Below, piece after piece: positions 5,171-62,070 of a stretch of DNA of 64,000 bases. Numbering within the stretch: position 1 is the first letter of the stretch; each line of letters opens with the position of its first letter. The stretch is taken from IMG/VR virus record IMGVR_UViG_3300037467_001050, positions 58,895 through 122,894 of that record; one strand, given 5' to 3'. A model generated the notes under the pieces. That model did no database searches and was not told the origin of the DNA. It worked only from the letters and a program-made list of their open reading frames with translations. The position numbers and the translations under genes are program-made. The stretch comes from a virus.

Positions 5171-5184
5171 TTGCAGGAATGCAA
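5171..5184 (+). promoter_or_regulatory. Repeated motif TTGCAGGAATGCAA (perfect copy)
   Basis: Exact match, 4 nt after a stop codon; second half-site GCAAA 19 nt later overlaps ATG 5201. Confidence 0.75.
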
Positions 5185-5200
5185 ACAAGCGGCATCTGAA

Positions 5201-5560
5201 ATGGCAAACCCCTTCACCACCGCGGCGGGGTGGCTCCTGGGCAATCCGCTCGTGAGCCACGCCGTCGTGGCCTCGGCTCTGACCGCGGCAGGGTCCGCGG
5301 CCGGGCACGTCGCCGGCATCGCCCATGCTCCGGTGATCGCGGCCGGCGTCATCTCTGCGGTCTACTACGGCCGCGAGGCCGGCCAGCTGGAGCATGACCT
5401 CAAGCATGGCACGACCTCCCACGGGGTCGTCTCTCCCTTCCTGGCGTTCGCGGGTGCCGAGTTCGGCTTCCTGTGGAGCCTCGACAACCTCCTGCAGTTT
5501 CTCGCTGCAGCTGGAGCCTCCGCAGGTGTTGCGGCGGCCTTGACCCTCACGGGCAACTAA
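5201..5560 (+). CDS. Hypothetical membrane protein (possible holin-like)
   Basis: Several hydrophobic Ala/Gly-rich segments. Confidence 0.6.
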   Translation: MANPFTTAAGWLLGNPLVSHAVVASALTAAGSAAGHVAGIAHAPVIAAGVISAVYYGREAGQLEHDLKHGTTSHGVVSPFLAFAGAEFGFLWSLDNLLQFLAAAGASAGVAAALTLTGN

Positions 5561-5604
5561 ACGGCTGCCGGATCACCGGCTCAGCCCAAGAAACGTCCCC
5601 TCCG

Positions 5605-5636
5605 AAAGCCGCCCAAACAGGGCGGCTTTTCTTTTT
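5605..5636 (+). terminator. Intrinsic terminator
   Basis: AAAGCCGCCC-AAACA-GGGCGGCTTT followed by TCTTTTT. Confidence 0.75.
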
Positions 5637-5651
5637 GGAGCAAAGAGAAAA

Positions 5652-7079
5652 GTGGCTGTTACATACCTGCACGGTGTCGAGACCATCGAGCTCGACGACG
5701 GCATCGTTCCCGTCCAGACCGTCAAGTCCTCGATCATCGGCGTGATCGGCACGGCGCCCGACGCTGATCCCGACCTGTTTCCCTTGAACACGCCGGTGGC
5801 GCTGTTCGCCAACCCGACCAAGGCGACCAAGCTCGGCAAGGCCGGCACGCTGCTCGACGCGGTCAACGCGATCTACTCGCAGGGCTCGGCCACCGTGGTC
5901 GTGATCCGCGTCGAAGGCGAGACCGGCCGCGAAGCGATGGCCAACGCCGTGGGCTCGCCGACCGCCAAGACGGGCGTGTGGGCCCTCCTGAAGTCGCGCC
6001 CGATCCTGAAGCTGATCCCGAAGATCCTGATCGCCCCGGGCCTCACCTCCGAGCGCCCGTCCGACGGTCTGGTCGACGCCACTGTCGGCGCCCCGGGTGA
6101 CGGCTACGTCCAGGCGACCACGAAGGTGGTCTTCGATCCCCCGGCCGCGGGTGGCCGGCAGGCGCAGGGCACCGTCCAGGTGGTGCTCGGTAAGGTGACC
6201 GGCGTCACCATCACTGACCCCGGCTACGGTTACGCGGCGGCCCCAGCGGCCACCGTGACCGGCGACGGCACCGGTGCCACCGTGACGACCTCGCTCGGCT
6301 TCGTCGCCAACCCCGTCGCGAAGGCCCTGGAAGCCGTGGCGCCGCGCCTGCGCGCGATCGCCCTCGTGGACGGACCCGGCACGTCCTACGAAGACGCGGT
6401 GAGCTACAGAAACGACTTCGGCTCGCAGCGCGTGATGGTGCTCGACCCCGGCGTCGTGGTCTACGACATCGAGACGGCGACCAACGTCACCAAGCCCGCC
6501 TCCGCCTACGCTGCCGGCATCCAGGCCCGCATCGACAAGGAGAATGGCTTCTGGTGGAGCTTCTCCAACAACGAGATCCAGAACATCCTCGGCCCGGCAC
6601 GCCCGGTCGACTTCATGTACGGGGATCCGGACGCGGAGGCGAACCAGCTCAACGGGCAGCAGATCACGACCATCATCCACGATGATGGTTTTAGGTTCTG
6701 GGGTCTGCGCGGCACGGGTCAGGATGCCCTCTGGGCCTTCCTGAGCGTCCGCCGCACCGCGGACATGATCTACGAGAGCCTCGAGGCGGCCCACCGGCCC
6801 TTCCTCGATCGGCCCTTCAACTACGCGCTGCTCGACGTCATCGAGAACTCGGTGAACGCCTACCTGCAGCAGCTGCGGGCCCGCGGCGCGCTGATCAACG
6901 GCACCTGCACGATCGACCCGAACGTCAACACGAAGGACACCTTCGTGAACGGCGAGCTGATCGTCGACTTCGACCTGGAGCCGCCCGCCCCGCTCGAGCA
7001 CCTGACGTTCCGCGCCCGGCGCAACCCGAACTACTACACGGACTTCATCGAGGAGTTCGTGGCGGCTACGCAGGGCTAA
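5652..7079 (+). CDS. Contractile tail sheath protein (P2 FI-like)
   Basis: YLHGVETIE, IIGVIGTAP, ILIAPG, GFWWSFSN, GFRFWG.R, PPAP.EH.TF motifs. Confidence 0.95.
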   Translation: MAVTYLHGVETIELDDGIVPVQTVKSSIIGVIGTAPDADPDLFPLNTPVALFANPTKATKLGKAGTLLDAVNAIYSQGSATVVVIRVEGETGREAMANAVGSPTAKTGVWALLKSRPILKLIPKILIAPGLTSERPSDGLVDATVGAPGDGYVQATTKVVFDPPAAGGRQAQGTVQVVLGKVTGVTITDPGYGYAAAPAATVTGDGTGATVTTSLGFVANPVAKALEAVAPRLRAIALVDGPGTSYEDAVSYRNDFGSQRVMVLDPGVVVYDIETATNVTKPASAYAAGIQARIDKENGFWWSFSNNEIQNILGPARPVDFMYGDPDAEANQLNGQQITTIIHDDGFRFWGLRGTGQDALWAFLSVRRTADMIYESLEAAHRPFLDRPFNYALLDVIENSVNAYLQQLRARGALINGTCTIDPNVNTKDTFVNGELIVDFDLEPPAPLEHLTFRARRNPNYYTDFIEEFVAATQG

Positions 7080-7083
7080 TCAC

Positions 7084-7097
7084 TTGCAGGAATGCAA
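7084..7097 (+). promoter_or_regulatory. Repeated motif TTGCAGGAATGCAA (perfect; extended palindrome CACTTGCA-GGAA-TGCAAGTG 7081-7100)
   Basis: Exact match immediately after the sheath stop codon. Confidence 0.75.
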
Positions 7098-7194
7098 GTG
7101 AACATCGTCTGACAAAGCAAACCGCTGATGGGCGGGCGCGGCCGAGTGGTCGCGCCCCGCTCGAGCGCGTCTTCGCAACAAAAAGAAGAAGAAA

Positions 7195-7725
7195 ATGGCG
7201 AACACCAACCTGCGCGACAGCGATATTCTGCGCGACTTCACCGTCTGGATCAAGGGCAACGGTAAGATGGGGACTTGCCCCAGCTTCCAGCTGCCGGAAA
7301 TCAAGATCCAGACTGAGGATTTCCGCGGCGGCGGCATGGATATGGCCGTCGAAATCCCGATGGGCGTGGAAAAAATCGAATTTGATTTTGACATGCATGT
7401 GTGGGATCCGGAGATCTTCCAGAACCTCGGCTACGATGTCGGGGCCATGGATGTGCCACTCATGTTCCGCGGCTACATGCTCTCGCCCAACGGCGCCCAG
7501 AAGAGCGTGATGATCGCGACCCAATCGCTGATCAAGGCGATCAAGCCGGGCAAGGTCGAGCCGGGCAAGAAGACCGAGATCTCGGTCTCCGTCTCCGCGA
7601 ACCGCTACGTCCACAAGATCGACACCAAGATCGTCAACTCGTTCGACGCCTTCAACAAGGTCATGATCATCAACGGTCAGGACAAGAGCTCTGAGGCGCG
7701 CCGGATCCTGGGCTTCGACTACTAA
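7195..7725 (+). CDS. Tail tube protein (P2 FII-like)
   Basis: LPEIKIQTEDFRGGGMD and ID..N....ING.D motifs. Confidence 0.93.
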   Translation: MANTNLRDSDILRDFTVWIKGNGKMGTCPSFQLPEIKIQTEDFRGGGMDMAVEIPMGVEKIEFDFDMHVWDPEIFQNLGYDVGAMDVPLMFRGYMLSPNGAQKSVMIATQSLIKAIKPGKVEPGKKTEISVSVSANRYVHKIDTKIVNSFDAFNKVMIINGQDKSSEARRILGFDY

Positions 7726-7757
7726 GATCCCCATATAATCCATCTGAAACCCAGCCG

Positions 7758-7779
7758 CCCCGCCGGTTCGCCGGCGGGG
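7758..7779 (+). terminator. GC-rich hairpin with UUCG tetraloop (pause, terminator or processing site)
   Basis: CCCCGCCGG-TTCG-CCGGCGGGG; weak U tract. Confidence 0.45.
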
Positions 7780-7814
7780 TTCGTGCTGCCAAGGTGTAAC
7801 AAGAAGAAAAGACA

Positions 7815-8087
7815 ATGTCGGGACTGACATACAAGCTGAAGTTTCCCTTCGAGCACGCCGGTGTGAACTACACCGAATTCTCGCTGCGCCGCCCCAAGGT
7901 GCGCGACTTCCGGAACTTCGCCAAGAACATCGAGCGGGATCCGATCACGGCCATGGAGGAGATCATCTCCGACCTGTGCGAAATCGACGGAAACGTCATC
8001 GCCGAGATCGACATCGAGGACTGGGGCCCGATGAAGGATTTCTTTGAGGGTTTTTTGGACAAGCTCTCGAAAAAGTCGGAGAAGTAA
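7815..8087 (+). CDS. Tail assembly chaperone (P2 gpE-like)
   Basis: LRRPKVRD, ID.ED motifs; lies between tube and tape measure genes. Confidence 0.85.
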   Translation: MSGLTYKLKFPFEHAGVNYTEFSLRRPKVRDFRNFAKNIERDPITAMEEIISDLCEIDGNVIAEIDIEDWGPMKDFFEGFLDKLSKKSEK

Positions 8088-8236
8088 TTCCGGCTGCGGT
8101 GCCAATGTTTGAACGTTGGCACTGGAATATGGAAAACATCGAGAACCTGGACTGGGAAGAGTTCTGGGCTCTCTCTGAGGGAGCGAAGCTCCTCTACAAG
8201 CGAGAAGCAGAAGCGAGAGCGCGCGGGGGTCGATGA
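7815..8236 (+). CDS. Tail assembly chaperone E+E' fusion made by a -1 programmed frameshift
   Basis: Slippery G GGT TTT TTG at 8048-8057; the -1 frame is open to TGA 8234-8236 and encodes gpE'-like FERWHWNMENIENLDWEEFW. Confidence 0.8.
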
Positions 8237-14147: not shown

Positions 14148-14176
14148 AGGTCGCCCCATCCGGGCGGCCTTTTTCT
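14148..14176 (+). terminator. Intrinsic terminator
   Basis: AGGTCGCCC-CATCC-GGGCGGCCT followed by TTTTCT. Confidence 0.65.
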
Positions 14177-15329: not shown

Positions 15330-15343
15330 TTGCAGGAATGCAA
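15330..15343 (+). promoter_or_regulatory. Repeated motif TTGCAGGAATGCAA (perfect copy)
   Basis: Exact match upstream of the endolysin; second half-site AATGCAAATG overlaps the start codon. Confidence 0.75.
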
Positions 15344-15365
15344 GCCAACCGGCGGAGGAATGCAA

Positions 15366-16538
15366 ATGACCATGCTGACCAGCGAGGCGCTGCGCCGCAT
15401 CGCCCCGTCGGCGCGCGCTGACATCGTCGCCGCCCTGATCGCGGCCGAGCCCGAGATGCGTGCGGCCGGCATCACCGCCAACGAGCGCCGCCTGCGCCAC
15501 TTCATCGCCCAGACCGCCTGTGAGAGCGCCGGCTTCCGCCATCTGGAAGAGGGGCTCTCCTACACGGCTGAGCGCCTGCATGCCGTGTGGCCGAAGCGCT
15601 TCCCGACTGTCGCCTCGGCGCGCCCCTACGCGCGCAACCCAGAGAAGCTGGCGAACAAGGTCTACGGCGGCCGTCTGGGTAACACCCAGAGTGGCGACGG
15701 ATACAAGTACCGCGGTGGCGGCCTGATCCAGACCACCGGCCGCGACAACTACCGGGCGGCCGGCCACGAGCACGACCCCGAGACGGTCCGGACGCCGGCC
15801 GGCGGCGTCGCTGCTGCCATCGAGTTCTGGAAGCGCAACGGCCTCAACATCATCGCCGACCGCGACGACATCGTGGCTGTGACCCGCAAGGTGAACGGCG
15901 GCGAGAACGGTCTTGCGGAGCGCCGGAATTTCTACCGGCTCGCCTGCAAGTACATCGTGCCGGTCTCCGACGAGGTCGAGGACGGTTCCGAGGGTGAGAC
16001 CCGCGCCCCGGCGCCCGCCGACCTCGCTCTGTCCGCCGGCAAGATCAAGGCCCTGCAGGAGCAACTGCTGCAGCTCGGCTACGCCCAGATCGGCCGGCCC
16101 GACGGCGTCATGGGCTCGAAGACCATCGCGGCGATCTCCCAGTTCCAGGCGGAGAACGGCATCGAGGTCAACGGCCGCTTCGACGAGCAGACGCAGGAAC
16201 ACCTCTACGAGGCCAGCCCCCGGGTCACGAACTACGCCGACCCGAAGGAGAAGGGCAGCAAGATCACCAAGCACGCCGAGACGATGATGAAGGGCGCGCT
16301 GGGTCTGATGGGTGCCACCGGCTTCAGTGCCGCGGCTGACCCGCTGTCGCAGATAGAGGCGGCCAAGGGCTACCTCGACCGCATCAAGTCAGTGATGGCG
16401 CCGTTCCACGCGATCCAGGAGTTCGTGACCGGCCACGTCTGGCTCGTCGCGATCGCCGCCGCGCTCGCCGTCTACCTCTACGGACGGACCATCGCCCACC
16501 ACGACGCCGACAATCACGCAACTGGAAAAACGGCGTAA
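15366..16538 (+). CDS. Endolysin: GH19 glycoside hydrolase, peptidoglycan-binding domain and C-terminal hydrophobic segments
   Basis: RHFIAQTACES, YRGGGLIQTTGRDNY, VTRKVNGGENGLAERR; LQEQLLQLGY...DGVMGSKT..AI..FQ. Confidence 0.92.
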   Translation: MTMLTSEALRRIAPSARADIVAALIAAEPEMRAAGITANERRLRHFIAQTACESAGFRHLEEGLSYTAERLHAVWPKRFPTVASARPYARNPEKLANKVYGGRLGNTQSGDGYKYRGGGLIQTTGRDNYRAAGHEHDPETVRTPAGGVAAAIEFWKRNGLNIIADRDDIVAVTRKVNGGENGLAERRNFYRLACKYIVPVSDEVEDGSEGETRAPAPADLALSAGKIKALQEQLLQLGYAQIGRPDGVMGSKTIAAISQFQAENGIEVNGRFDEQTQEHLYEASPRVTNYADPKEKGSKITKHAETMMKGALGLMGATGFSAAADPLSQIEAAKGYLDRIKSVMAPFHAIQEFVTGHVWLVAIAAALAVYLYGRTIAHHDADNHATGKTA

Positions 16539-17807: not shown

Positions 17808-17821
17808 TTGCAGGAATGCAA
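17808..17821 (+). promoter_or_regulatory. Repeated motif TTGCAGGAATGCAA (perfect copy)
   Basis: Exact match 1 nt after a stop codon; AAAATGCAAAC at the 19-nt spacing. Confidence 0.75.
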
Positions 17822-17860
17822 ATGACGTGCTAGGGAAAATGCAAACGGAGATGCTAACGC

Positions 17861-21049: not shown

Positions 21050-21063
21050 TTGCAGGAATGCAA
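21050..21063 (+). promoter_or_regulatory. Repeated motif TTGCAGGAATGCAA (perfect copy)
   Basis: Exact match; AAAATGCAAAC at the 19-nt spacing. Confidence 0.75.
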
Positions 21064-21101
21064 ACAGTGTGCGAGGGAAAATGCAAACGCAGGGGATTGC
21101 C

Positions 21102-22131: not shown

Positions 22132-22838
22132 ACGCGATCGGCCTGTCCGGCTTCGCGGCGTCGGGGAAGACGACCGCGGCCAAGTATATCGAGAAGACCT
22201 ACGGTTTCGAGCGGCGCCACATCGCCGAGCCGCTGCGCGCCATGATCGCCGTTCTGATGCGCGCCAACGGCATCTCCGAGGAGATGATCGACCGCTACCT
22301 CGTGGGCGACCTGAAGGACGGCGTGGTGATCCCTGAGCTGGGCAAGACCTCGCGCGAGCTGCAGATCACCATCGGCACAGAGTGGGGGAGGGAGTGCGTC
22401 GGCCCTGACGTCTGGGTGAACACCTGGGTCCGCGGCGTCGGCCCGGGCGAGCGCGTCATGAACGACAGCGTCCGCTTCCCCAACGAGGAAGACGCCATAC
22501 ACTCGCTCGGTGGCCTCACGATCCTGATCACCCGCAAGGGCACTGGCCCGGCCAAGTTCAAGTGGTTCGGCCTCGGCAAGCTGCTCTACAAGGCCACCGG
22601 CCTCATGTGGGGCGTCCACGACAGCGAGCGCACCGACCGGCTCAGCCCCGACATCGTCATCGAGAACGACGGAACGGTCGAGGATCTGGAGCGCGCGATC
22701 GACGCCGCCCTGCGGGACTTCTGGGCCGACCGGCAGCCGAAGGGCGCCACGTACCCGGTGCCGGAACTCGCCAACGACAACCGGGCCGGCGTGATCGCGC
22801 TCGCCACCCAAGCCTTCGCTATGCGGGGTGTCGCGTGA
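22128..22838 (+). CDS. Deoxynucleoside monophosphate kinase
   Basis: IGLSGFAASGKTT P-loop, RELQITIGTEWGR, DSVRFPNE, HDSE. Confidence 0.9.
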   Translation: MNAIGLSGFAASGKTTAAKYIEKTYGFERRHIAEPLRAMIAVLMRANGISEEMIDRYLVGDLKDGVVIPELGKTSRELQITIGTEWGRECVGPDVWVNTWVRGVGPGERVMNDSVRFPNEEDAIHSLGGLTILITRKGTGPAKFKWFGLGKLLYKATGLMWGVHDSERTDRLSPDIVIENDGTVEDLERAIDAALRDFWADRQPKGATYPVPELANDNRAGVIALATQAFAMRGVA

Positions 22839-31861: not shown

Positions 31862-32113
31862 TCAGGTCGTGGGAGGCCAGTCGACGTGGATTTGGTTCAA
31901 CTCCATTGCCTCCCGCAGGTACTGGATCCACTGCTCGTCACGCTCCCTGAGACGGGCCTGGATCAGCTGCTCCACGGCCTCGGTGATGGCCTCTGCGGCC
32001 TCGATGGAGAAGGGCGCCACGCCGAATGGCGACCGAGACTGAAGAAGGGTTCGCGAGAGAGCGCGAGCCCGTCGGAACGCCTCGGTGGCGGCATGTGCAA
32101 GCAGGCTGGCCAT
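31862..32113 (-). CDS. Hypothetical protein
   Basis: The start codon lies within the AATGCAAATG half-site. Confidence 0.45.
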   Translation of the reverse strand: MASLLAHAATEAFRRARALSRTLLQSRSPFGVAPFSIEAAEAITEAVEQLIQARLRERDEQWIQYLREAMELNQIHVDWPPTT

Positions 32114-32127
32114 TTGCATTTTATTAC

Positions 32128-32141
32128 TTGCATTCCTGCAA
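32128..32141 (-). promoter_or_regulatory. Repeated motif TTGCAGGAATGCAA (perfect copy)
   Basis: Reads TTGCATTCCTGCAA on the + strand. Confidence 0.75.
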
Positions 32142-32152
32142 ACGCGCAAGCG

Positions 32153-33701: not shown

Positions 33702-34388
33702 TCAGGCTTCCTTTCCGGTTGCGTGGTTGTAGCCGCTGGAGTCGATGCAGGCGGGCAGCTTGGTGACCCGCCCGGCAGCGATGACCTCGGCGATCAGGTC
33801 CTGCTCGGTCTTGCCGGCGGGTGGTGGCGGGAGAGAGCGCTTCCGCCGGGTCGGGATGGTGCCGAAGTTCTCGACGAAGCTGCCCTTGGCAGGCGGGGAG
33901 GCATCGGGCGTCCGCATCGAGCGGAACGAGCCGCCCGAGCTCTTCAGGCCCAGCCGGTCGAAGGTCTTCACGAGTGTGGCGGCATAGAACTTGCCGCCAC
34001 GTTCGGTCTTGATCCCGCGGTTGTTCAGCTCGGTGGCGATGCCATTGAGGGTCGTGGTCCCGCCCTCGAAGATCTCGATGATCGTGGCGTCGAGCGGATC
34101 CGGGGCCGGCGGCGCCTCCGGGAGGCGCTCTTCGATTTCAGCCTCAGGGGTCGGTTCGACTGCTGCGGGCAGGATCGCTGCAGCTGGAGAGAGCAGGATC
34201 TTCGGTTCGAGCTTCACCTGGGTCAGGGCTGCGAGCGGCTTCATCCACTCCGGAAGCTCTCCGGTTGCCGGCTCGTAGTCGGGTTCGCGCGTCTCGCCGA
34301 GGCCGTCCGCGATGCGCTCCAGGGCGTCAGCGATGCGCCCGACATTGGCGAAGAAGGGTGTCAGATCCACCGCCGTCCCCATTAGCAT
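33702..34388 (-). CDS. Protein with a stand-alone recombinase-type DNA-binding HTH
   Basis: TLNGIATELNNRGIKTERGGKFYAATL. Confidence 0.65.
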   Translation of the reverse strand: MLMGTAVDLTPFFANVGRIADALERIADGLGETREPDYEPATGELPEWMKPLAALTQVKLEPKILLSPAAAILPAAVEPTPEAEIEERLPEAPPAPDPLDATIIEIFEGGTTTLNGIATELNNRGIKTERGGKFYAATLVKTFDRLGLKSSGGSFRSMRTPDASPPAKGSFVENFGTIPTRRKRSLPPPPAGKTEQDLIAEVIAAGRVTKLPACIDSSGYNHATGKEA

Positions 34389-34404
34389 TTTAGATCATAA
34401 GCCG

Positions 34405-34815
34405 TTAGCATTCCTGCAAGCGTTCGACAAGGCCTGTATGGTCGACGGTCAGAACCTCCATCCTCGCGCGTTGAGCGCGCTCGATCATGTCGGCCGTTCC
34501 TTCGTTACCAGGAAGGGCCACCAGCGCGCCGGGCCTCCAGCGGGTGATCATGGCCTGGTTGCGCATCCGACCAGCCATCGCCCGACCCCAGCGCGCCCAG
34601 TCCGCCGGCATGGTCTCGTAGGGCACGCCGCGGGCGATCGCCCATTGCAGCCCCCACCAGTCCCCGCCACCGACGGTCTTGCCCTTCACCCGGCTGCGCT
34701 GTCCGCCCTCGATCACGCCGCAGATGCCGCCCAGCATCACGTCGGCCTGATCGAGAGCCCGCATCGCCATCTCGCCATCGGTGAAGTCGCGCCCGCCGGC
34801 GACGATGGTGATCAT
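34405..34815 (-). CDS. SLOG superfamily protein (DUF2493/YspA-like)
   Basis: IVAGGRDF, IEGG, G.D, ADW..WG..AG..RN..M, LPG..GTADMI. Confidence 0.85.
   Translation of the reverse strand: MITIVAGGRDFTDGEMAMRALDQADVMLGGICGVIEGGQRSRVKGKTVGGGDWWGLQWAIARGVPYETMPADWARWGRAMAGRMRNQAMITRWRPGALVALPGNEGTADMIERAQRARMEVLTVDHTGLVERLQEC
34406..34419 (-). promoter_or_regulatory. Repeated motif variant TTGCAGGAATGCTA
   Basis: One mismatch; the AAAATGCTAAT half-site at the 19-nt spacing contains the start codon of 33702-34388. Confidence 0.7.
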
Positions 34816-37576: not shown

Positions 37577-37590
37577 TTGACTTCCTGCAA
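37577..37590 (-). promoter_or_regulatory. Repeated motif variant TTGCAGGAAGTCAA
   Basis: Two mismatches; a partial second copy GGAATGCAA lies at 37561-37569. Confidence 0.6.
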
Positions 37591-37857: not shown

Positions 37858-38153
37858 CCCCGCCTTTTGTTCCGCCTTTGTTCTCGTAACACGCACCTCA
37901 CGTTCCGTCGACGCACTAGGTGCAAAATCCTCTGGAAAATTGCATTCTCAGAGAAGCTGAGCCGTTTGCATTTTCGTCGTTTCCAGACGTGTCTGCAAAC
38001 CGCTCTAGCAGACGCTCGCGGGGCCGTGAAGACCAAAACACGGTTAATGGTGTCCAATTCCTGACCATTGAGTGAGGCTGGAGGAACGCACACGGTGCGT
38101 CGAAGCGTTCCCTGATTGACGGCCCACGCGAGGCCGTCAGGCCGCACACCAGA

Positions 38154-40917: not shown

Positions 40918-40931
40918 TTGCATTCCTGCAA
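40918..40931 (-). promoter_or_regulatory. Repeated motif TTGCAGGAATGCAA (perfect copy)
   Basis: Exact match upstream of the SLT gene. Confidence 0.75.
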
Positions 40932-43488: not shown

Positions 43489-43542
43489 GGGCGCTCCTCT
43501 GTCTGTCGGCTCGGATAGCATAGCCAACGCATAATGCAAACC

Positions 43543-43573
43543 AAAAATGCAAACGGCCACCCGAAGGTGGCCG
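43543..43573 (-). terminator. Intrinsic terminator (UUCG loop) whose U-tract is a TTTGCATTTTT half-site
   Basis: CGGCCACC-TTCG-GGTGGCCG-TTTGCATTTTT. Confidence 0.7.
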
Positions 43574-44940: not shown

Positions 44941-44954
44941 TTGAATTCCTGCAA
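44941..44954 (-). promoter_or_regulatory. Repeated motif variant TTGCAGGAATTCAA
   Basis: One mismatch; intergenic, upstream of terB. Confidence 0.65.
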
Positions 44955-46364: not shown

Positions 46365-46415
46365 CATTTGCATTTCCATTGCACGTTTGCCGTTAGCATT
46401 CAAGCAAATGCAAAC
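46365..46415 (-). promoter_or_regulatory. Cluster of TGCAA/TTGCA half-sites with a degenerate motif (TTGCTTGAATGCTA, 46394-46407)
   Basis: Several half-sites in 50 bp upstream of the MazG-like gene. Confidence 0.5.
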
Positions 46416-46635: not shown

Positions 46636-47193
46636 TCACGCCGCCTCCTGCAGGCGTTTCCACGTCTTGCCCGTGACCACGTTGAGAATGGTTCGTGGCG
46701 TGACGTTGAGGTCTGTCGCCTTTTTCTCGCAGAACTCGTTGCAGTTTGCAGCGCTCAACTTGAATTCCTGCAACAGACAGGTCACGTCGCTCGGCTTCAG
46801 TTTCGCTCTATTGAACGTCCCAGCAACCAAGGCAGCACTACGATGCCTGAATTGATCTTCGATGTTTTCCTGCTGCGTACCCCAGCATAGATTGTCGATA
46901 TGGTTGTTGTCTGGATTTCCATCCAAATGACGGGCAACCATCCCCTCCGGCCTAGGTGGACCAAAGAGCATCAAAACTAGCTCGTGGAGGTAGAAACTTT
47001 TCGCTTTACCGGACCAAGAGCCAAGCCTGATGTGTCGATAACCTCCATCGTGGACAGACAATCGGTTGAAACGTGCGTTGTTCACGCTCCAAATCCGACC
47101 GTCTGGGTACACATAGATCGGTGTACCGCCGTGCTCGAAGCGGACCCCTCCCGGAGGAGGGGTCACTTCATTCTCTGGCTTCCGCCGTCCCAT
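46636..47193 (-). CDS. NUMOD4-HNH homing endonuclease
   Basis: YLHELVL..FG.P.P.G.VARHLDGNPDNN.IDNL.WGT..EN; lower GC than flanks. Confidence 0.9.
   Translation of the reverse strand: MGRRKPENEVTPPPGGVRFEHGGTPIYVYPDGRIWSVNNARFNRLSVHDGGYRHIRLGSWSGKAKSFYLHELVLMLFGPPRPEGMVARHLDGNPDNNHIDNLCWGTQQENIEDQFRHRSAALVAGTFNRAKLKPSDVTCLLQEFKLSAANCNEFCEKKATDLNVTPRTILNVVTGKTWKRLQEAA
46760..46773 (-). promoter_or_regulatory. Repeated motif variant TTGCAGGAATTCAA (inside the HNH CDS)
   Basis: One mismatch; intragenic. Confidence 0.45.
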
Positions 47194-51746: not shown

Positions 51747-52212
51747 GAGCCACTCCGCGACTGAAACTCCTCTTAGGCCAACGGCTCTTCTTCTTGGTCT
51801 CCACCTCGGCCTCGACGTCATCTCCCCGGCTCTTCGCCGTGATGCGTCGCCTGTAGTCTTCCTGGGCCCTGGTCAGTCGGCGGAGCTTGGCGATCTCGGC
51901 CACGTCACCGTGAACCGCGTTCAGCTTGCTCTCGCCCTTGCGCCCGGTGGTCTTCCGGGCGTGACAGACCTTGTGCTTGGCCTGGATGGCCTCGTTGTCG
52001 TTGGCAGCAGGGATCGTGTCCTGCTTCTCAGGATCCCATCCCCGCAGCTGGAGCGCGGGGACGTGATCGAACTGAGTGTCGCCACCGACCTCGAGCGGCT
52101 CACCACAGGCCGCGCACCGCCCCTCCTGACGGATCACCGTGGCGAGCTTCGCAGAGCACGGGATCGCCTTTCTGAACCCAGCAGGAGGGGCCGGAACCTC
52201 GTTTGCAATCAC
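51571..52212 (-). CDS. HNH endonuclease
   Basis: RCAACG, FDHVPAL, KHKVCHARKT; the 3' extension overlaps the next gene. Confidence 0.8.
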   Translation of the reverse strand: MIANEVPAPPAGFRKAIPCSAKLATVIRQEGRCAACGEPLEVGGDTQFDHVPALQLRGWDPEKQDTIPAANDNEAIQAKHKVCHARKTTGRKGESKLNAVHGDVAEIAKLRRLTRAQEDYRRRITAKSRGDDVEAEVETKKKSRWPKRSFSRGVARATSTTGSQDRDRSSDEKSRRRGLSLRDDNKKSKGAFPLRRKMAQRRDRENSEDGVPE

Positions 52213-52225
52213 ACCGCCGTCCTAC

Positions 52226-52239
52226 TTGCATTCCTGCAA
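52226..52239 (-). promoter_or_regulatory. Repeated motif TTGCAGGAATGCAA (perfect copy)
   Basis: Exact match; preceded by an inverted TTTGCATTTTTT half-site. Confidence 0.75.
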
Positions 52240-52267
52240 GCGGTCAAGCGGAAAAAATGCAAACGGA

Positions 52268-53674
52268 TCAGGCCGCCTTGGCTGCCCGCTTCGCATCGCG
52301 CTCCTTGCGCCAGGGCGCGTCCTTCTCCCAATCGCCGGCCATGATCGAACCGTATGGCCGGATCTCGTCGACGATCTCGGCGAGGCCGTACTTCTCGATC
52401 TGGGCGCGCACCGCCGCGGCGTCCTTGTAGGCCGACGGCAGCTCGGAGTGGTCCGGGATCCCGCAGTAGGACCGGATGTCGAAGCCGCGCGCCTTCAGGT
52501 CGGCGAGCTCCTGCGTCAGAGCATCCGGGCCGCCCTGTGCCAAGTGCTGGGTCCGGGACAGGTTTCGGCCGGCCCCGTGTGGCGCGAAACCCAGCGAGCC
52601 CTTGTGGTCGCGGTGCTCGGCGATCAGGATCGGCTGGCTCATGTTGAGCGGGATCAGCGTGTTGCCGACGTCGTCAGGCGAGAAGCCCTTCCACGACGGG
52701 GTCGCGCCCTTGCCGTGGTAGAACAGTCCGTCAGACTTCCGGAACACGAAGTTGTGCTCGTTCCAGAACCGAGCCGTCACGCGGTTGCCGAGGCGCGCCG
52801 CTGCCATGTCGTGGATGGCGTAGTGGCTGTCCCGGGTCCACTGCCTGACCCACTGCAGCGCGTCCCAGTAATCCCGTCCCTCCTGCGAGTTGGCGTCGAT
52901 CCAGGCGTTGTGGCTCGGAACCCGCGGAGCGACGATCCCGGTGTGGCGCTTGGCCACCGCCATGCCGAGCTTGTAGAGCTGAGCGCCCAGGCCGCGCGAG
53001 CCGTGGTGGGTGACCAGCGCCAGATGCCCGGTGCTCGCCAGCTTGCCGACGTAGGCGAAGTGGTTGCCGTCGCCCTGTGTGGCGAAGTGGAACTTGGCGA
53101 AGTCGCCGAGCGGCTTGAGGAAGGGGTTCTCGGCCGCCTTGGCCCAGTAGTCTGGCAGGGCCACGTCCATCTTGCGCGGGCTCTTGGGCGAGACCGGCCC
53201 GAAGTGGGTCACAGCCTCGACCGCATCGAGCAGCCGGCCAGGATCATCCTCGCGCCGGAACACTGAAACCGCCATCGAGCAGCAGATGTCGGCCGAGTGG
53301 AAGCCGGGGTGGATCGCGTCCTTCGTTGCGACCGCGCCGCCGACAGGGATCGTCCCGGGCTGCGAACCGGACGGGCAAGCGTCGGGCATGATCGCGCCGG
53401 CGACGATGGTGGGCACCCGCATCAGGGCATCCATGTGGGCGTTCACGGCCTCGAGGTTGGCCCGCTCACCGTCGTTCTCCGCGTCGAGGAAGACGCCGTA
53501 GGGTAGGGCGTTCGTGCGCGCCGTCAGCTCCACCGGCACCAGCGTCTGAAGGTGCTCGAAGATCGCCTGCTCGGTGGCGCCGGCCGCCGCCATCTCATTG
53601 GCCTTGGCGATGCCGGCCTTGAACCATCGGCCCGGCTGGAAGCCCCAGGCCATCAGCGTGTTGCCGTCGATCAT
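52268..53674 (-). CDS. rtcB: RtcB family RNA ligase
   Basis: MPDAC, IPVG, ADICCSM, GDGNHF, HHGSRGLG, HNF, PHGAGR, ELPSAYKD. Confidence 0.95.
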   Translation of the reverse strand: MIDGNTLMAWGFQPGRWFKAGIAKANEMAAAGATEQAIFEHLQTLVPVELTARTNALPYGVFLDAENDGERANLEAVNAHMDALMRVPTIVAGAIMPDACPSGSQPGTIPVGGAVATKDAIHPGFHSADICCSMAVSVFRREDDPGRLLDAVEAVTHFGPVSPKSPRKMDVALPDYWAKAAENPFLKPLGDFAKFHFATQGDGNHFAYVGKLASTGHLALVTHHGSRGLGAQLYKLGMAVAKRHTGIVAPRVPSHNAWIDANSQEGRDYWDALQWVRQWTRDSHYAIHDMAAARLGNRVTARFWNEHNFVFRKSDGLFYHGKGATPSWKGFSPDDVGNTLIPLNMSQPILIAEHRDHKGSLGFAPHGAGRNLSRTQHLAQGGPDALTQELADLKARGFDIRSYCGIPDHSELPSAYKDAAAVRAQIEKYGLAEIVDEIRPYGSIMAGDWEKDAPWRKERDAKRAAKAA

Positions 53675-56480: not shown

Positions 56481-57353
56481 TCAGGCGGCCTCGGCCGCCG
56501 GTTGCAGGTCGGGTTCTTCGATGTCCCAGAGGGCGCGGCCGTCCTTGCCGCGGCGGATGCTCACGCCGTGGCCGTGGACCTTCGCCATGTCGTCGCCGAG
56601 GAACTTCTTCAGGCGGCGCTTGGCGCTGTCGTGCATCTTGGCCGACTTCAGGTGCTGCCGGACCTCGAAGGCCAGCGACGCCCACTCGTTGTTGCCGGTC
56701 ATGTCGACCACGCGGAGCGGCTTCGGCTTGGCTGGCTGATTGACCCGCTGCGCCTTCGGTGTGCGGCCTGTCTCAACGCAGTCCCAGAAGTCCTGCAGGG
56801 CGTCGAGCAGGCGGACATGGTAGAATTCGTCGGCCTCGATCTCGGCTTTCTTCCACTGGCCTGCGCCAGTGATTACCGAGAGCCAGCCGCGCTCCATCTC
56901 GGAGCACATGAGCTGGTGCTGAACCTGCGGGAAATACTTCTCCACCGCGCCGTCCATGGTCCAGTAGATCGGGAACATGAACTTGGCCTCGACCACACCC
57001 TGCGCCGGCCCGTCGGGTGTCGAGCGCACGATGCCGTCGAGGGTGGCGTGGGCGTGATCCCAGCGCGGGTGAGGGATCTTCTTCTGGTCGTCGGTGACGA
57101 CCCAGCCTGTCTGGAACTCGAACCAGCCGAGGTTCAGCGGCTCGGTGACGTTGCCCATGTGGATGAGCAGCATCTCCTCGAAGTCTGGCGAGTTGTCCTC
57201 GCCGCGCAGCTGGCGCCAATGCGCCTCCACCTCGGCCTGATCGCCCGACATGATGATGCGCGCGTCCGACCCGCCGAGCGAACCCTTGCGGGCCGCCAGG
57301 GTCGCTGCATCCATGCCGAGATGGGCTGTGCGCCGGAAGGGATCCATTTGCAT
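56481..57353 (-). CDS. YqaJ/lambda-exonuclease-like protein
   Basis: R...LGGSDA, GN..EP, ATLDG, VEAK, YFPQVQHQL. Confidence 0.9.
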   Translation of the reverse strand: MQMDPFRRTAHLGMDAATLAARKGSLGGSDARIIMSGDQAEVEAHWRQLRGEDNSPDFEEMLLIHMGNVTEPLNLGWFEFQTGWVVTDDQKKIPHPRWDHAHATLDGIVRSTPDGPAQGVVEAKFMFPIYWTMDGAVEKYFPQVQHQLMCSEMERGWLSVITGAGQWKKAEIEADEFYHVRLLDALQDFWDCVETGRTPKAQRVNQPAKPKPLRVVDMTGNNEWASLAFEVRQHLKSAKMHDSAKRRLKKFLGDDMAKVHGHGVSIRRGKDGRALWDIEEPDLQPAAEAA

Positions 57354-57368
57354 TCTCTAGCCTGCTGT

Positions 57369-57382
57369 TTGCTTTCCTGCAA
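57369..57382 (-). promoter_or_regulatory. Repeated motif variant TTGCAGGAAAGCAA
   Basis: One mismatch; flanked by TTGCATTTT upstream and by AATGCAAATG on the start codon. Confidence 0.7.
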
Positions 57383-57401
57383 GCCGGAAAATGCAATCCG
57401 G

Positions 57402-57599
57402 CTAGGTGAGTGGACGACCCCAAGGGTTGGCCTGGATCTCGCGCACGATCTCGCTCAGCGCTTCCATGATGTTGAAGCCTGGGCCGTGGGCGAGGATGTC
57501 GATCTGAAATGGTCGAGCCCGGCCGAACAGTCGGCCGCGCGCCCGGCGACGCGAGCGGCGGGTGACCTTACGGCCGGGCCACGTCTCGTAGGGGATCAT
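57402..57599 (-). CDS. Small hypothetical protein
   Basis: ATGA coupling to dnaQ. Confidence 0.4.
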   Translation of the reverse strand: MIPYETWPGRKVTRRSRRRARGRLFGRARPFQIDILAHGPGFNIMEALSEIVREIQANPWGRPLT

Positions 57600-58754: not shown

Positions 58755-59008
58755 GCGCCGTTGAACCGGGCGCGCAGGGCGAAGAAGCGGCGGTTCTCGC
58801 GCCGGACGCGCATCCGCTTGCGCTCGTCGGCGGAGGCGAACAGCCATATGATGCCGACGACCGTCCAGGCGAGTGCGGCGATGGCCAGGAAGAGCATCGC
58901 CGGCCAGAACGGGAAGAGTACCAGCATCCAGTGCCAGTCGATGATGCCGGCGAAGCGCATGACGATGAGGCACACCCCGAGCAGGGTGGCGAACAAGCGG
59001 ATGTCCAT
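58751..59008 (-). CDS. Small membrane protein
   Basis: GIIDWHW..V.FP.W motif and TM segments. Confidence 0.6.
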   Translation of the reverse strand: MDIRLFATLLGVCLIVMRFAGIIDWHWMLVLFPFWPAMLFLAIAALAWTVVGIIWLFASADERKRMRVRRENRRFFALRARFNGA

Positions 59009-59031
59009 GGTGTGTCCTTCAGGGTGATGGG

Positions 59032-59262
59032 TTAGGCGTCTAGGTCCACGCCGAGAGCCACGAGCCGGGTCTCGATGTCGACGCGGCGCCGGTTCAGCTC
59101 GTCGAGGATCGGTTTCTTCGCCAGCTGGGCGATGTCTTCGTTCTCGTAGGAGCCAGCTACCGAGACGAGGATTTCACCCGCCTCGACCTTGCGGATGCGG
59201 ATCCGCAGGCTGTTGCGCTGCCGGGCCAGATCCTGGGCAGCATTGATGTCGCTCAGACGCAT
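59032..59262 (-). CDS. Hypothetical protein
   Basis: Coupled ORF. Confidence 0.55.
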   Translation of the reverse strand: MRLSDINAAQDLARQRNSLRIRIRKVEAGEILVSVAGSYENEDIAQLAKKPILDELNRRRVDIETRLVALGVDLDA

Positions 59263-59498
59263 CAGGGTCGATCCTCTGGGTTGATGCCCATCTGCTTCAT
59301 CAGCAGCCAGGCGACGTTGTGCTTGGCGTCGAGGAGAGCTTCGAAGCCGGAAAGCGCGGCGAGCCGGGCCCGCTCGAGCTCATCGCGCGAGCCCTGGAAG
59401 AGGGCGGCCTCGAAGTCCTTGATCCGGGCCTGGAGGTAGAGGTCCGCGGCTGCGGTCCTCAGTCCGGCCGAGGTCATGATGGGATCCTGCTCAGGCAC
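59262..59498 (-). CDS. Hypothetical protein
   Basis: Coupled ORF. Confidence 0.5.
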   Translation of the reverse strand: MPEQDPIMTSAGLRTAAADLYLQARIKDFEAALFQGSRDELERARLAALSGFEALLDAKHNVAWLLMKQMGINPEDRP

Positions 59499-60081
59499 CG
59501 AGGGCCTCCACGAAGCCGGAGCCGTCCGCCGCGGGCACGATCCCGAGGGTCTTGCGCAGGCCGGAGATGATCCGGCCGATGCCCTTGGTGCGGACCTCGT
59601 ACTCGACCTGGGCGAACCGCATCCGGCCGTTTCCGTAGATCCGGACGGCCGCCTCGGTGTTGCCGCGGGCCAGTTGCACGACCGCCTTCTGCAGGCGGTG
59701 CTCGGGGTCGCGATCCGAGTTGCAGAACCGCAGCCACTCCAGCACGCCGAGCGCCCGCTCGACGTCGTCGCGCTGCGGCAGCGTGCGGGCCTGCCCGTCG
59801 AAGGGCTTGATGCCGGCGAGCACCCGGATGCGCTCGATCTCGGCGAGCTCGGCCTGGGTCATGCCCACGCTGCTCCAGCCGCCGGATCGGCTGGCCGAGT
59901 TCAGCCAGCGCTTCTCCTCGTCGGGGATGCGCTCCATGATCTGCAGCGCGTCCTCGAGCAGGACCCGGATCGTGTGCCAGGGTTTCGGGCGGCCCTCGAA
60001 ACGCGACCGCGCCAGCTCGGCACCATGGCCGAGCCAGCGCAGCGCGCGGTTCCGGGCCTCGTTGTCAGACGAGGGCTGCAT
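59491..60081 (-). CDS. Hypothetical alphaproteobacterial prophage protein
   Basis: W..I...LEDA..I..RIP, DDVERALGVLEWL. Confidence 0.6.
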   Translation of the reverse strand: MQPSSDNEARNRALRWLGHGAELARSRFEGRPKPWHTIRVLLEDALQIMERIPDEEKRWLNSASRSGGWSSVGMTQAELAEIERIRVLAGIKPFDGQARTLPQRDDVERALGVLEWLRFCNSDRDPEHRLQKAVVQLARGNTEAAVRIYGNGRMRFAQVEYEVRTKGIGRIISGLRKTLGIVPAADGSGFVEALGA

Positions 60082-60409
60082 CCTTCACCTTCGTGGCGTG
60101 GAGCCGTTCGGTGTCCGAGAGGCGGCGCGTTGCGCGGTAGTCGAACACGCCGGGCGAGATCCGCTTCTGCGAAGGGATCAGGTACCCGACATCGACCGCC
60201 CGCTTCACAGCCAGGGCGACGCCGTTGATCGCCGAGGCGTGCTGCACCTGGACGTCAGTCGGGTCCGCGAGATTGCTCGCGTCCCGATCGAACTGGAGGT
60301 CGCCGGTGTGGTAGACCACCACGTCGCCCTCACGCGCCTTCTCGAACCAGTTGACGAAGTCGGCGAGGGCGCCAGCCCCCGCCTCGAGCCGTGTCACCCT
60401 CGTCGCCAT
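60065..60409 (-). CDS. Hypothetical protein
   Basis: F..W...A..GD..VYH.G.L..DR pattern. Confidence 0.6.
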   Translation of the reverse strand: MATRVTRLEAGAGALADFVNWFEKAREGDVVVYHTGDLQFDRDASNLADPTDVQVQHASAINGVALAVKRAVDVGYLIPSQKRISPGVFDYRATRRLSDTERLHATKVKDAALV

Positions 60410-60411
60410 GA

Positions 60412-61020
60412 TCAGTCCTCGAAGGTCTCTTCGACGAGGCGAGCGGCGATCGCCGCGGCGGCGCCGATGTTCTCGATGCCGCGCACGAGCTGCGAGACCA
60501 CGACGCGCTTCTCGAAGGCGTCGGGATCCTCCATGTCGTCGAAGGCACCGGTGTAGGGCTCGAACACCCGCTCGCCGGCCTCGATAGGCTTGTCGGCCTG
60601 CGCATCGAACGGGCGGCCGAAGCCATCGATGATGCGAGTCTCGCTCGCCGGTTCGTCGGCAGGAACGTCGATCCGCTCGCCGCCCCGGTAGACGCCGTCG
60701 AAGATCACCTTTGGCTTCTCGCCGTTCGGGCCGAGCGGTAGCGTGTCGACCAGCATCTGAGTGAGGCGCTTACCGAATGCGGCGTGATCTTCGGCGGAGG
60801 CATGCGAACCCGGCGGGGTCACGTCAGCCGGGATCTGCAGGCCTTCGGCGATCTCGCCCAGGCAGACGCCGGGCGGGCAGCCGCAGGACTTAACCTCTTC
60901 CGCTGCCTCCCCAGCGAGCTGTGCGGTGTCGGCCGCCGCGATGGCATCGAGGATCATCTTCAGGCCTTCGTTGTAGCCGCCCAGGCCGAGGCCGCTGCGG
61001 TCATGGATCTGAGTTTGCAT
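60412..61020 (-). CDS. Acidic hypothetical protein
   Basis: AGGA RBS; MQTQIHDRS. Confidence 0.6.
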   Translation of the reverse strand: MQTQIHDRSGLGLGGYNEGLKMILDAIAAADTAQLAGEAAEEVKSCGCPPGVCLGEIAEGLQIPADVTPPGSHASAEDHAAFGKRLTQMLVDTLPLGPNGEKPKVIFDGVYRGGERIDVPADEPASETRIIDGFGRPFDAQADKPIEAGERVFEPYTGAFDDMEDPDAFEKRVVVSQLVRGIENIGAAAAIAARLVEETFED

Positions 61021-61037
61021 TGTATGGTCCTTTTCCC

Positions 61038-61460
61038 CTACGCCGCCGCACGCAGCGTTTGCTTTCCTGCAAGTGCCCGGGCACGAGTTCTTGCGCCAAC
61101 GATTGCCTTGAAGCCCGGGTAGTTGAGGTTCTCTTTCTGGGTTCCCCATTTTAGGTTCCCAGGCCAGTTGTGAGATCCATCTTCGTCGTCATGCATCACA
61201 ACTGCGCCCGGAAAAGGTTTCGGGCCGTTGAACGCTTCGCAGACGAGGATGTGGACCTTGTAGGTCTTGCGCTTGAACATGAAGTGGAAGCGCTTCCCGT
61301 CCTCCTCCCAATCACCGTACCGCGGCTTCCCTACGACCAGCTTGAACCCACCTTTCGGCATCCGCTGCTCGTAAGGATCGATCCGTACTCGGCCCCACGA
61401 GGAGGCCGAGAGACCGGGAACGGAAGGAACGGGCTTCCAGATCTCGGGTTCGGTGAGCAT
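61038..61460 (-). CDS. NUMOD4-HNH homing endonuclease
   Basis: EIWKPVP....Y/L.ASSWGRV, VHILVCEAFNGP.P, H.DED..N...NL.WGT.KEN. Confidence 0.88.
   Translation of the reverse strand: MLTEPEIWKPVPSVPGLSASSWGRVRIDPYEQRMPKGGFKLVVGKPRYGDWEEDGKRFHFMFKRKTYKVHILVCEAFNGPKPFPGAVVMHDDEDGSHNWPGNLKWGTQKENLNYPGFKAIVGARTRARALAGKQTLRAAA
61059..61072 (-). promoter_or_regulatory. Repeated motif variant TTGCAGGAAAGCAA
   Basis: One mismatch; lies in the last codons of the HNH gene, upstream of 60412-61020. Confidence 0.6.
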
Positions 61461-62017
61461 CAGCCCCGCCACTCCATGGCGAATGGGATGTCATCGTCTA
61501 GGTCGTAGCCACCGCGACCACCGCCCGAGCGCAGACCACCGCCGCCCGATGACCGCCCACCGCGGTCATCCCGGCGATCGTCGCGACCCCGGCCGCGATC
61601 GTCGTCCCGGCCCCGGCCGCGCCCGCCGCGGTCATCGTCGCTGTCACCACCGCGCCCGCCACCCTCGGAACCGCCGGATAGGATGTTGATCTCGCCGCGG
61701 AAGGGGCCGACGACGATCTCTGTCGAGTAGCGCTCGACACCGTCCTTCTCCCACTTGCGGGTCTGCAGCTGCCCCTCGACGTAGAGCTTGGTGCCCTTCG
61801 TCACGTACTGCTCGACGACCCGCACGAGGTTCTCGTTGCGCACGACGACCGTGTGCCACTCGGTCTTCTCCTTGCGCTCGCCGGACGCCTTGTCCTTCCA
61901 GCTCTCGCTCGTGGCGAGGCGCAGGTTGGCGACCTTGTCGCCGCTGCCGAACGTGCGGACATCCGGGTCAGCGCCCAGGTTGCCCACCAAAATCACCTTA
62001 TTGACCGACCCAGCCAT
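61460..62017 (-). CDS. ssb: Single-stranded DNA-binding protein
   Basis: [41 protein letters not shown]. Confidence 0.98.
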
Positions 62018-62056
62018 CTCGGCTCCTTCCGATTTGCATTTTGCCTACACGCCCGT

Positions 62057-62070
62057 TTGCAATCCTGCAA
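62057..62070 (-). promoter_or_regulatory. Repeated motif variant TTGCAGGATTGCAA
   Basis: One mismatch; AAAATGCAAAT at the 19-nt spacing, upstream of ssb. Confidence 0.7.

Follow-up and report, generated by a model that had tools for sequence, protein, structure and literature searches.

What does the second half-site do that follows many copies of a short repeated element in a soil-metagenome phage, and does it act in DNA or in messenger RNA? The element, TTGCAGGAATGCAA (hereafter the 14-mer), recurs in a stretch of 64,000 nucleotides (nt), referred to here as the window, which comprises bases 58,895-122,894 of a single 122,894-bp virus contig (IMG/VR record IMGVR_UViG_3300037467_001050; 64.6% G+C). 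It is often followed at a short distance by GCAAA or GCTAA, in places on or next to a plausible start codon. A sequence-only reading of the window proposed an RNA switch for translation and offered, as a fallback, a protein bound cooperatively to phased DNA half-sites. The fallback fits better, in that half-sites are enriched in both orientations, the 14-mer is a dyad of the form 4-N6-4, a repressor-like gene is present and some copies occupy the spacer of promoter-like sites, although the spacing is not kept across relatives. We regard it as about an even call that the 14-mer is a 434-like operator of a phage CI/LexA-like repressor, with the second copies as auxiliary half-operators in a genome-wide operator/stoperator-like network. 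The 19-nt spacing that drew attention to the half-site is a real preference in this genome, local to this phage and not a rule. Coordinates below are those of the window, each 14-mer being named by its lowest position, unless they are marked as genome positions.

Allowing at most two mismatches, the 14-mer occurs 15 times in the window, against 0.25 copies expected, and 37 times in the whole contig. The copies are found genome-wide in short intergenic gaps and, where genes were callable, begin 1-36 nt 3' of the upstream stop codon. All 37 point with the local gene direction, including the copy before the repressor gene described below, which is a plus-strand gene in a minus-strand block. Gene directions were taken from a rough GC3-based gene call; in genome positions, the minus-strand genes extend downwards from about 32 kb, past the contig ends, as far as about 83 kb, and the plus-strand genes occupy about 35 to 83 kb. 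The layout of the element is TTGC-N6-GCAA, a dyad with a conserved asymmetric GGAAT centre.

The contig is that of a temperate-type myophage, kin of Bradyrhizobium phage BDU-MI-1 (KY940711), with which its gene order agrees; the window encodes a tail sheath, a tape-measure protein, DNA polymerase III alpha, a class II ribonucleotide reductase, RtcB, a primase-helicase and a tyrosine integrase. In a near-identity search of phage GenBank, BDU-MI-1 was the sole relative, found via the ribonucleotide reductase gene, and about 25 more relatives, several of them from bacterial isolate assemblies, were taken from IMG/VR via the primase-helicase gene. Among sequencing runs searched for the contig, two DNA runs from soil metagenomes came up, one of them its likely source, and no RNA run. 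The TTGC and GCAA arms are invariant across BDU-MI-1 and these relatives while positions 5-6 vary, the family-wide form being TTGC-NN-GAATGCAA; the 14-mers of BDU-MI-1 mostly have TTGCTT, TTGCAT, TTGCAC or TTGTTT on the left. An exact 14-mer scan of IMG/VR gave single chance matches only, and the composite of 14-mer, N5-30 and ATGCAAA is at about chance level in IMG/VR and GTDB genomes.

The gaps listed in the sequence-only reading are all exact: 19 nt at 5171, 7084, 17808, 21050, 34406 (as GCTAA) and 62057, 18 nt at 15330, 17 nt at 57369, and 10 nt at 32128 and 46760. That list omits one further copy with a 19-nt gap, 52226, which is the seventh. GC[AT]AA lies exactly 19 nt after seven of the 37 14-mers (p = 2e-6 against local motif density, 1e-4 when corrected for 46 offsets), and gaps of 17-19 nt are found at 11 of them. 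The description of the spacing as fixed therefore stands as far as a non-random peak at 19 nt is concerned, but it does not amount to a rule, since another 11 of the 37 have no GC[AT]AA within 50 nt and the other gaps span 3-42 nt. The cases are also not all independent. The spacers of 17808 and 21050 are identical at 14 of 19 positions, where the null averages 5.9 and, over 435 pairs, never exceeds 11, so these two are copies by descent; it looks as if a cassette of about 45 nt (14-mer, spacer and half-site, with spacers at 17822-17840 and 21064-21082) had been duplicated at two late-gene junctions that lie 3 kb from each other.

What recurs as the second motif is the right half alone, AA(T/A)GCAAA(C/T), with no TTGC signal at the left-arm positions, and an extra right-half copy is present within 50 nt downstream of 25 of the 37 14-mers. 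Measured from centre to centre, 14-mer and half-site are 21-23 bp apart at 11 of the 37, 17 bp at the SSB site of the BDU clade and 11-14 bp elsewhere. Outside the 14-mers, non-coding DNA contains 38 free copies of TGCAAA against an expectation of about 5, an enrichment of about 7-fold, with 22 copies co-oriented and 16 anti-oriented. A strand-specific RNA signal would not give such a split, which favours a site read at the DNA level. The inverted TTTGCA copies reported earlier are likewise present, at 52258, 46409 and 43535/43548, as are the TTGCA at 57392 and the half-site cluster at 37921-37999.

Conservation of the spacing in homologous phages, on which the sequence-only reading had been staked, largely fails. 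BDU-MI-1 has no 19-nt case at all, its few second sites lying 2-13 nt away. At the primase-SSB junction, this phage and L120, the relative nearest to it, have a gap of 19 nt (with GCGAA as the half-site in L120); of the 16 distinct sequences from the BDU clade, 15 have 13 nt, reading TGnTAATGCAAAC, and L122 has 14 nt. The BDU-clade orthologues of the 21050, 17808 and 57369 sites are without the insert that bears the second copy, and in the orthologues of the 57369 gene the ATG follows 10-12 nt after the 14-mer. One arrangement is kept throughout: 5' of the repressor gene or operon, this phage and all clades have a 14-mer, 7 nt and TGCAA.

A candidate for the protein that would bind these sites is encoded outside the window at genome 2118-2867 (L163:2118-2867), on the plus strand, as the lone opposite-strand gene in the early block. 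Its 249-residue product has a weak Pfam match to HTH_26 (Cro/C1 helix-turn-helix), and its AF2 model (pLDDT 79) has a helix-turn-helix and a beta-rich C-terminal domain. Foldseek matched this model to the lambda and 186 repressors and LexA, with E-values of 2e-4 to 1e-2, and also to UmuD'; a PDB search by sequence found nothing. Orthologues of about 40% identity (23 matches) are present in every locus with the motif and in none of the loci without it; that of BDU-MI-1 is ARQ95258. The recognition helix hardly varies: it reads (A/S)PST(I/L/V)LR(L/I)(L/M/I)N, P, S, T, L, R and N being fixed, and in this it parallels the invariant TTGC and GCAA arms of the 14-mer.

If the 249-residue protein does bind the 14-mer, the second GCAAA may be understood as a right-half operator copy that offers a weak docking site, and two classes of site may be proposed. 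In the first, the 14-mer would fill the spacer of a host-type promoter or overlap its -35 element, and bound repressor would block initiation. In the second, which would include most copies, a lone 14-mer in a gene junction, pointing with transcription, would act as a stoperator-like roadblock. Binding is predicted to be cooperative and to silence transcription: where the half-site is 21-23 bp away, about two helical turns and near the 23-24 bp that separate the OR sites of lambda, a second repressor dimer might bind cooperatively, or alternatively the half-site might lengthen the roadblock so that it also covers the transcription start and leader.

The first class is represented by the minus-strand site at 52202-52263, in which an inverted TTTGCA (52263-52258) precedes TTGACC (52247-52242), 2 nt, the 14-mer (52239-52226), 1 nt, TAGGAC (52224-52219), 6 nt and a GTG (52212-52210), and TGCAAAC (52207-52201) falls inside codons 2-4. 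The orthologous sites in BDU-MI-1 (L001:27080) and at L121:20330, L123:19818, L125:19942, L154:19898 and L161:19898 share the design of TTGAC(T/C) (TTGACT in these relatives), 17 bp holding the 14-mer, and a TA-led hexamer (TAGGAC here, TAnGAA in five, TATGCA in L121). Only the third position of this -10-like hexamer varies freely; 6 nt and then ATG or GTG follow it in this phage and five of the six relatives (not L121), and the gene 3' of the unit is conserved, with an N-terminus reading ..PAPPxGFRKA. The unit suggests a leaderless mRNA under operator control, and conservation of a sequence held in a promoter spacer is as expected of an operator, which supports the operator reading. The same promoter-like layout is found at 32128 and in relatives at L120:8327 and L121:20338. 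At 32111-32149 (minus strand), TTGCGC (32149-32144) is followed by 2 nt, the 14-mer (32141-32128), 1 nt, TAATAA (32126-32121), AATGCAA and an ATG (32113-32111), a promoter-like composite with a 10-nt gap to GCAAA, its geometry being read from the letters and its transcription start presumed.

The 14-mer cannot be a general promoter, because many copies are followed too closely by a ribosome-binding site or by a terminator. These contexts suit an operator or a roadblock. A Shine-Dalgarno sequence and ATG come within 0-16 nt at genome 4965, 7868, 12376 and 16580 and at window 37577, among others, and an intrinsic terminator follows immediately at genome 49610 (L165:9610-9660), 58422 (L165:18422-18480) and 2910 (L163:2910-2985). 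These last three sites, which are 14-mers or 14-mer-like, lie between a stop codon and the terminator and have no ribosome-binding site nearby; the one at genome 2910 is just 3' of the repressor gene and has two more GCAAAC copies after it.

Several observations weigh against the operator reading. A symmetric CI-type dimer by itself explains neither the strict polarity of the sites nor their asymmetric GGAAT centre, and the left arm of the 14-mer is much better conserved than the right (4 against 19 mismatches), although the free copies are all of the right arm. In the repressor, the catalytic Ser/Lys pair of S24 peptidases cannot be clearly made out: 16 orthologues have MPD-D/N/S-S/T, with the nearby invariant Lys only 15 residues on, and for this reason the protein may be non-cleavable, like the 186 repressor. 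The co-occurrence of repressor and motif is confounded by shared ancestry, and since the spacing differs by clade (13 against 19 nt at SSB), any phase needed for cooperativity would not be universal. A scan with the E. coli sigma-70 consensus gives no promoter at the composites. Finally, the half-site is found beside a Shine-Dalgarno sequence or a start codon with a frequency that packing alone may not account for, as the GCAAATG starts described below illustrate, and it might for that reason have some role in the RNA as well.

A literature search found nothing on the regulation of BDU-MI-1 or on the 14-mer motif, and known systems offer partial parallels. The 434 operators are 14 bp long, of the form ACAA-N6-TTGT, and in lambda and 434 a strong site and a weaker neighbour, 20-24 bp away from centre to centre, are filled cooperatively. 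The present sites resemble the CI sites of these phages (OR1-OR2-OR3) in having a dyad with half-sites one helical turn apart, a site also upstream of the repressor gene itself and what would be pairs of strong and weak sites, and the candidate repressor has the corresponding helix-turn-helix and LexA-like C-terminal domain. They differ in that about 37 full sites, all polarised, are distributed over 123 kb in early and late modules instead of forming two operator clusters, in that the partner is only a half-site, and in that binding is here a prediction. If the prediction is right, a lambda-like repressor fold would be used for genome-wide, orientation-dependent silencing, and weak half-operators would help to extend that silencing; to our knowledge, the only repressors described to date as acting in this way are the unrelated, monomeric ones of the Cluster A mycobacteriophages.

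In the Cluster A phages (L5 gp71, TipsytheTRex repressor), the orientation of the stoperators tracks transcription (PMC9283540, PMC6550527), and the sites are asymmetric 13-mers bound by a monomeric two-domain repressor (PMC9283540). The phage studied here likewise has more than 20 copies in short intergenic gaps on both genome arms (37 copies, 37 of 37 oriented with transcription), and the same site is used in promoter-like units and at junctions. It departs from the stoperators over the asymmetric 13-bp site and the monomeric repressor; unlike in Cluster A, the arms are symmetric, the candidate repressor is CI/LexA-like, the host is alphaproteobacterial and extra half-sites stand beside many copies. 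The operators of T4 RegA are comparable as a short A/U-rich word at or beside the AUG of many phage genes, but RegA sites are strand-specific RNA, whereas in this phage both strands show the enrichment of the half-site, and some full sites have no ribosome-binding site nearby. Were the operator reading to hold, the rule TTGC-N6-GCAA plus AAWGCAAA could serve to annotate regulation in Bradyrhizobium-type phages and prophages of about 120 kb. The outcome mainly corrects the mechanism and brings no new principle, the 19-nt spacing being local and the RNA switch without support.

The start codons that the sequence-only reading placed in or next to the half-site fare well for the most part: 15366, 34388/34382, 32119/32113 and 57353/57347 are good candidates, and 21081 is doubtful. 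The word AATGCAAATG contains two in-frame ATGs, the internal ATG of the half-site being in frame with the ATG made by adding G. Homologues of the 57353 gene align from residues 1-7. The BDU-MI-1 homologue of the 21081 gene (MMLVYLAGPISG) aligns only from residue 12, and because of this and an AGGGGA Shine-Dalgarno sequence we favour GTG 21102 over ATG 21081 as the start. A homologue was also looked for, and not found, for the putative gene at 5201. Of the eight second sites with the reading GCAAAT, seven have G as the next base (p = 0.002); BDU-MI-1 has annotated genes starting at GCAAATG at 1727, 27115, 43158 and 106112, and GCAA is among the commonest -4..-1 contexts of its starts. The half-site precedes the Shine-Dalgarno sequence at 17808, 21050 and 62057, lies between Shine-Dalgarno sequence and ATG at 15330 (as GGAGGAATGCAAATG) and at genome 27699 and 36208, and is directly 5' of an ATG that has no Shine-Dalgarno sequence at 32128 and 34406. 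Three GCAAATG starts have GGAG(G) 6-7 nt upstream, and the mRNAs of these three must thus have their 5' ends before the half-site, contrary to the idea that transcription starts at the motif. We take the overlap of half-site and start codon to reflect genome compaction, that is, packing in very short intergenic gaps, because the gaps exceed the sites only slightly in length and, where a site ends in A-T, it takes little to turn that end into ATG. A by-product of this comparison is that the annotated start of BDU-MI-1 ARQ95268 (22624) is probably 30 nt too far downstream (L001:22570-22626): the N-terminal RRTxHxGM motif that it has in common with the window gene at 56481-57353 lies 5' of 22624, after a GCAAATG at 22594.

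The RNA switch, in which a UUGCA arm would pair by turns with the UGCAA beside it and with the start-codon copy and thereby gate the ribosome-binding site, is barely credible after these comparisons, as neither covariation nor folding supports it. The pairing is possible on paper, but compensatory changes are nil. Variants of the 14-mer at position 10 (T to A, five copies), position 11 (G to T, six copies) and position 13 are uncompensated within the genome; relatives mostly have TTGCTT or TTGTTT, which breaks the stem pair 5-10, and at the SSB site of L132 and L134-L136 neither partner is matched by TTGCTT, which is the most frequent left arm in BDU-MI-1. Covariation of left-arm position 5 with the base before the downstream GCAA is not significant (Fisher p = 0.46), nor is that of TTGCTT with AAGCAA in BDU-MI-1, and an extension of the hairpin into the flanks, which the SSB site seemed to favour, pairs at chance level over 128 distinct sites. 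When ten leaders were folded as RNA, a local hairpin formed in about half and the alternative pairing appeared in the minimum-energy fold of one (62057, at an ensemble frequency of 0.04); the z-scores of eight of the ten lie between -1.05 and +1.32. Three sites with an upstream inverted TTTGCA (52192-52272, 57338-57402 and L164:16140-16222) form imperfect palindromes of 65-83 nt around the 14-mer, with half-sites in the order left, left, right, right, and as RNA they give long hairpins whose z-scores are -3.9, -3.5 and -3.3. These hairpins could be counted for the switch, but a DNA palindrome would give equal z-scores and the palindrome at 52226 is absent from its orthologues; the structures could be cruciforms, long hairpins or symmetric multi-dimer sites. 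Moreover, as the half-site may stand before or after the Shine-Dalgarno sequence, or within the coding sequence, no one scheme of alternating conformers could hold for all sites.

Other explanations dispense with the switch. A phage RNA-binding protein might bind the transcribed 14-mer and AAUGCAAA copies, as at a T4 RegA-like operator or a processing or stability signal, with copies near the Shine-Dalgarno sequence or over the AUG controlling ribosome access. This would suit the uniform orientation of the 14-mers, the GCAAATG starts and the position of nearly every copy 0-16 nt before a Shine-Dalgarno sequence or AUG, or with a half-site between both; we nevertheless think it unlikely, given that free half-sites are nearly as enriched antisense, that some 14-mers stand between stop codon and terminator, that at 52226 and its orthologues the 14-mer is upstream of the presumed leaderless start, and that no hairpin covariation was found. 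The element might instead be a promoter, with TTGCAG as a -35 hexamer for host RNA polymerase and the second motif, 17-19 nt on, as discriminator or transcription start (GC-A+1-AA) of leaderless or short-leader mRNAs. A 17-bp spacer does bring a TA-led hexamer to positions 24-29 at 17808 (TAGGGA), 57369 (TAGAGA) and 62057 (TAGGCA) and, as TAATGC with an upstream TG, in the BDU-clade SSB sites, the start then falling at positions 35-38, on GCAAA, and several half-site ATGs are without a Shine-Dalgarno sequence (32128, 34406). Even so, this architecture strikes us as quite unlikely: besides the closely following ribosome-binding sites and terminators, the three starts with GGAG(G) and the short distance to ATG in the orthologues of the 57369 gene, the invariant right half would sit in the promoter spacer, the consensus scan is empty, one motif would have to serve early and late genes, and a phage sigma factor or RNA polymerase was not found by profile searches of the genome. 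It is also unlikely that the second copies are functionless by-products of right-half slippage or duplication, or of cassette copying, with the 19-nt mode reflecting descent. The shared spacers at 17808 and 21050, the common upstream flank of the 5171 and 7084 copies (tgatcac/taatcac), the identical A-to-T change in both copies at 34406, the missing second copy at orthologous late-gene sites of BDU-MI-1 and the unconserved clade spacing are all as such copying would leave them. Against this stand the SSB half-site, kept in 16 distinct BDU-clade sequences while the spacer varies, the family-wide arrangement before the repressor operon and the enrichment of free half-sites in non-coding DNA. A mixed reading, under which the same word acts twice in this 123-kb alphaproteobacterial myophage family, as a polarised CI-dimer roadblock in DNA and as a means of tuning or blocking translation in the mRNA of about ten genes, would be a long shot.

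Several further readers of the 14-mer were considered and rejected. Profile searches found no T7-like RNA polymerase or phage sigma factor that might read the motif: PF00940 and PF04542 had no match in the genome, and only small helix-turn-helix PF08281 matches below the cut-off were seen. A sigma-54 reading with TTGCW as the -12 element lacks GG at -24, the weak upstream T/G signal stemming from TGA stop codons. With GGAAT as an extracytoplasmic function (ECF)-type -35 element, the start would fall inside most downstream genes, and the same is true of an FNR/FixK-type class II box (TTG-N8-CAA), which we take the 14-mer to resemble but which, in a general role, would place the start 41.5 bp past its centre. 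An extended -10 reading (TGC, then nnGAAT) has no A at -11, a position that is variable, and a CsrA-type GGA hairpin is contradicted by relatives with TGAA, CGAA or TTGAAT for GGAA.

The individual sites in the window vary considerably. On the plus strand, the site at 5171-5208 has the 14-mer at 5171-5184, the 19-nt gap and GCAAA at 5204-5208, with ATG 5201 just before the half-site, and that at 7084-7121 (GCAAA at 7117-7121) lies 3' of the tail-sheath stop codon and is followed by a G+C-rich hairpin. At 15330-15368 the final A of the half-site (GCAAA, 15362-15366) opens ATG 15366, the start of a 390-residue open reading frame (ORF) with GGAGG 7 nt upstream; the second site here matches the 14-mer at 11 of 14 positions (match at 15352). 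The related sites at 17808-17845 and 21050-21087 both end in AAAATGCAAAC after the 19-nt gap, with GGAG and a start codon further 3' at the former and GTG 21102 as the likely start at the latter.

The remaining full sites are on the minus strand. At 34380-34419 the 14-mer variant TTGCAGGAATGCTA is followed after 19 nt by GCTAA, and ATGCTAATG holds in-frame ATGs at 34388 and 34382; the ORF is 226-228 residues long, with an in-frame stop 15 nt upstream of the second ATG, and the occurrence of GCTA, not GCAA, in both 14-mer and second copy hints at local duplication or gene conversion between copies. The variant at 37577-37590 has two mismatches and no GCAAA second site, and an ATG 3 nt 3' of it opens a signal-peptide-like ORF. 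The lone 14-mer at 40918-40931 is also without a second site and is followed by an AAGGGG Shine-Dalgarno sequence and an ATG 16 nt 3'. At 44941-44954 a variant with TTCAA as its right arm has its next GCAAA 27 nt 3', past a small hairpin; at 46745-46773 a variant is followed after 10 nt by TGCAAACTGCAA; and at 61059-61072 the next GCAAA after the variant is 40 nt 3'. In the site at 57347-57396 an inverted TTGCA (57396-57392) precedes the 14-mer variant (57382-57369), a 17-nt gap and GCAAA (57351-57347), and ATGCAAATG holds the two in-frame ATGs, 57353 and 57347. The variant 5' of the SSB gene (62033-62070) is followed by the 19-nt gap, AAAATGCAAAT, then GGAAGGAG and the ATG.

Free half-sites also occur in groups. 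The cluster at 37921-37999 has both orientations (TGCAAA at 37921 and 37994, TTTGCA at 37965, TTGCAT near 37940) and sits in a 380-bp gap downstream of the integrase gene. Two TTTGCA words (minus-strand reading) at 43535-43553 come after a terminator-like hairpin and partly make up its T-tract. At 46409-46414 (minus strand) an inverted TTTGCA is 1 nt upstream of a 14-mer with three mismatches (TTGCTTGAATGCTA, 46394-46407), with GGAAATGCAAATG further 3'.

Strong intrinsic terminators are present inside the late block at 5604-5630 and 14148-14170 on the plus strand; one of the two is just 5' of the tail-sheath gene, with no 14-mer between terminator and gene. Outside the phage family, Methylorubrum podarium and M. 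thiocyanatum (L181:5080-5105 and L186:5646-5671) have an exact TTGCAGGAATGCAA, 5 nt and ATGCAAAC at an orthologous chromosomal spot, overlapping the start of an ORF of about 400 residues. These two matches to the composite share no phage genes and have no phage homologues nearby, and they could be due to chance or to a host-factor site common to both.

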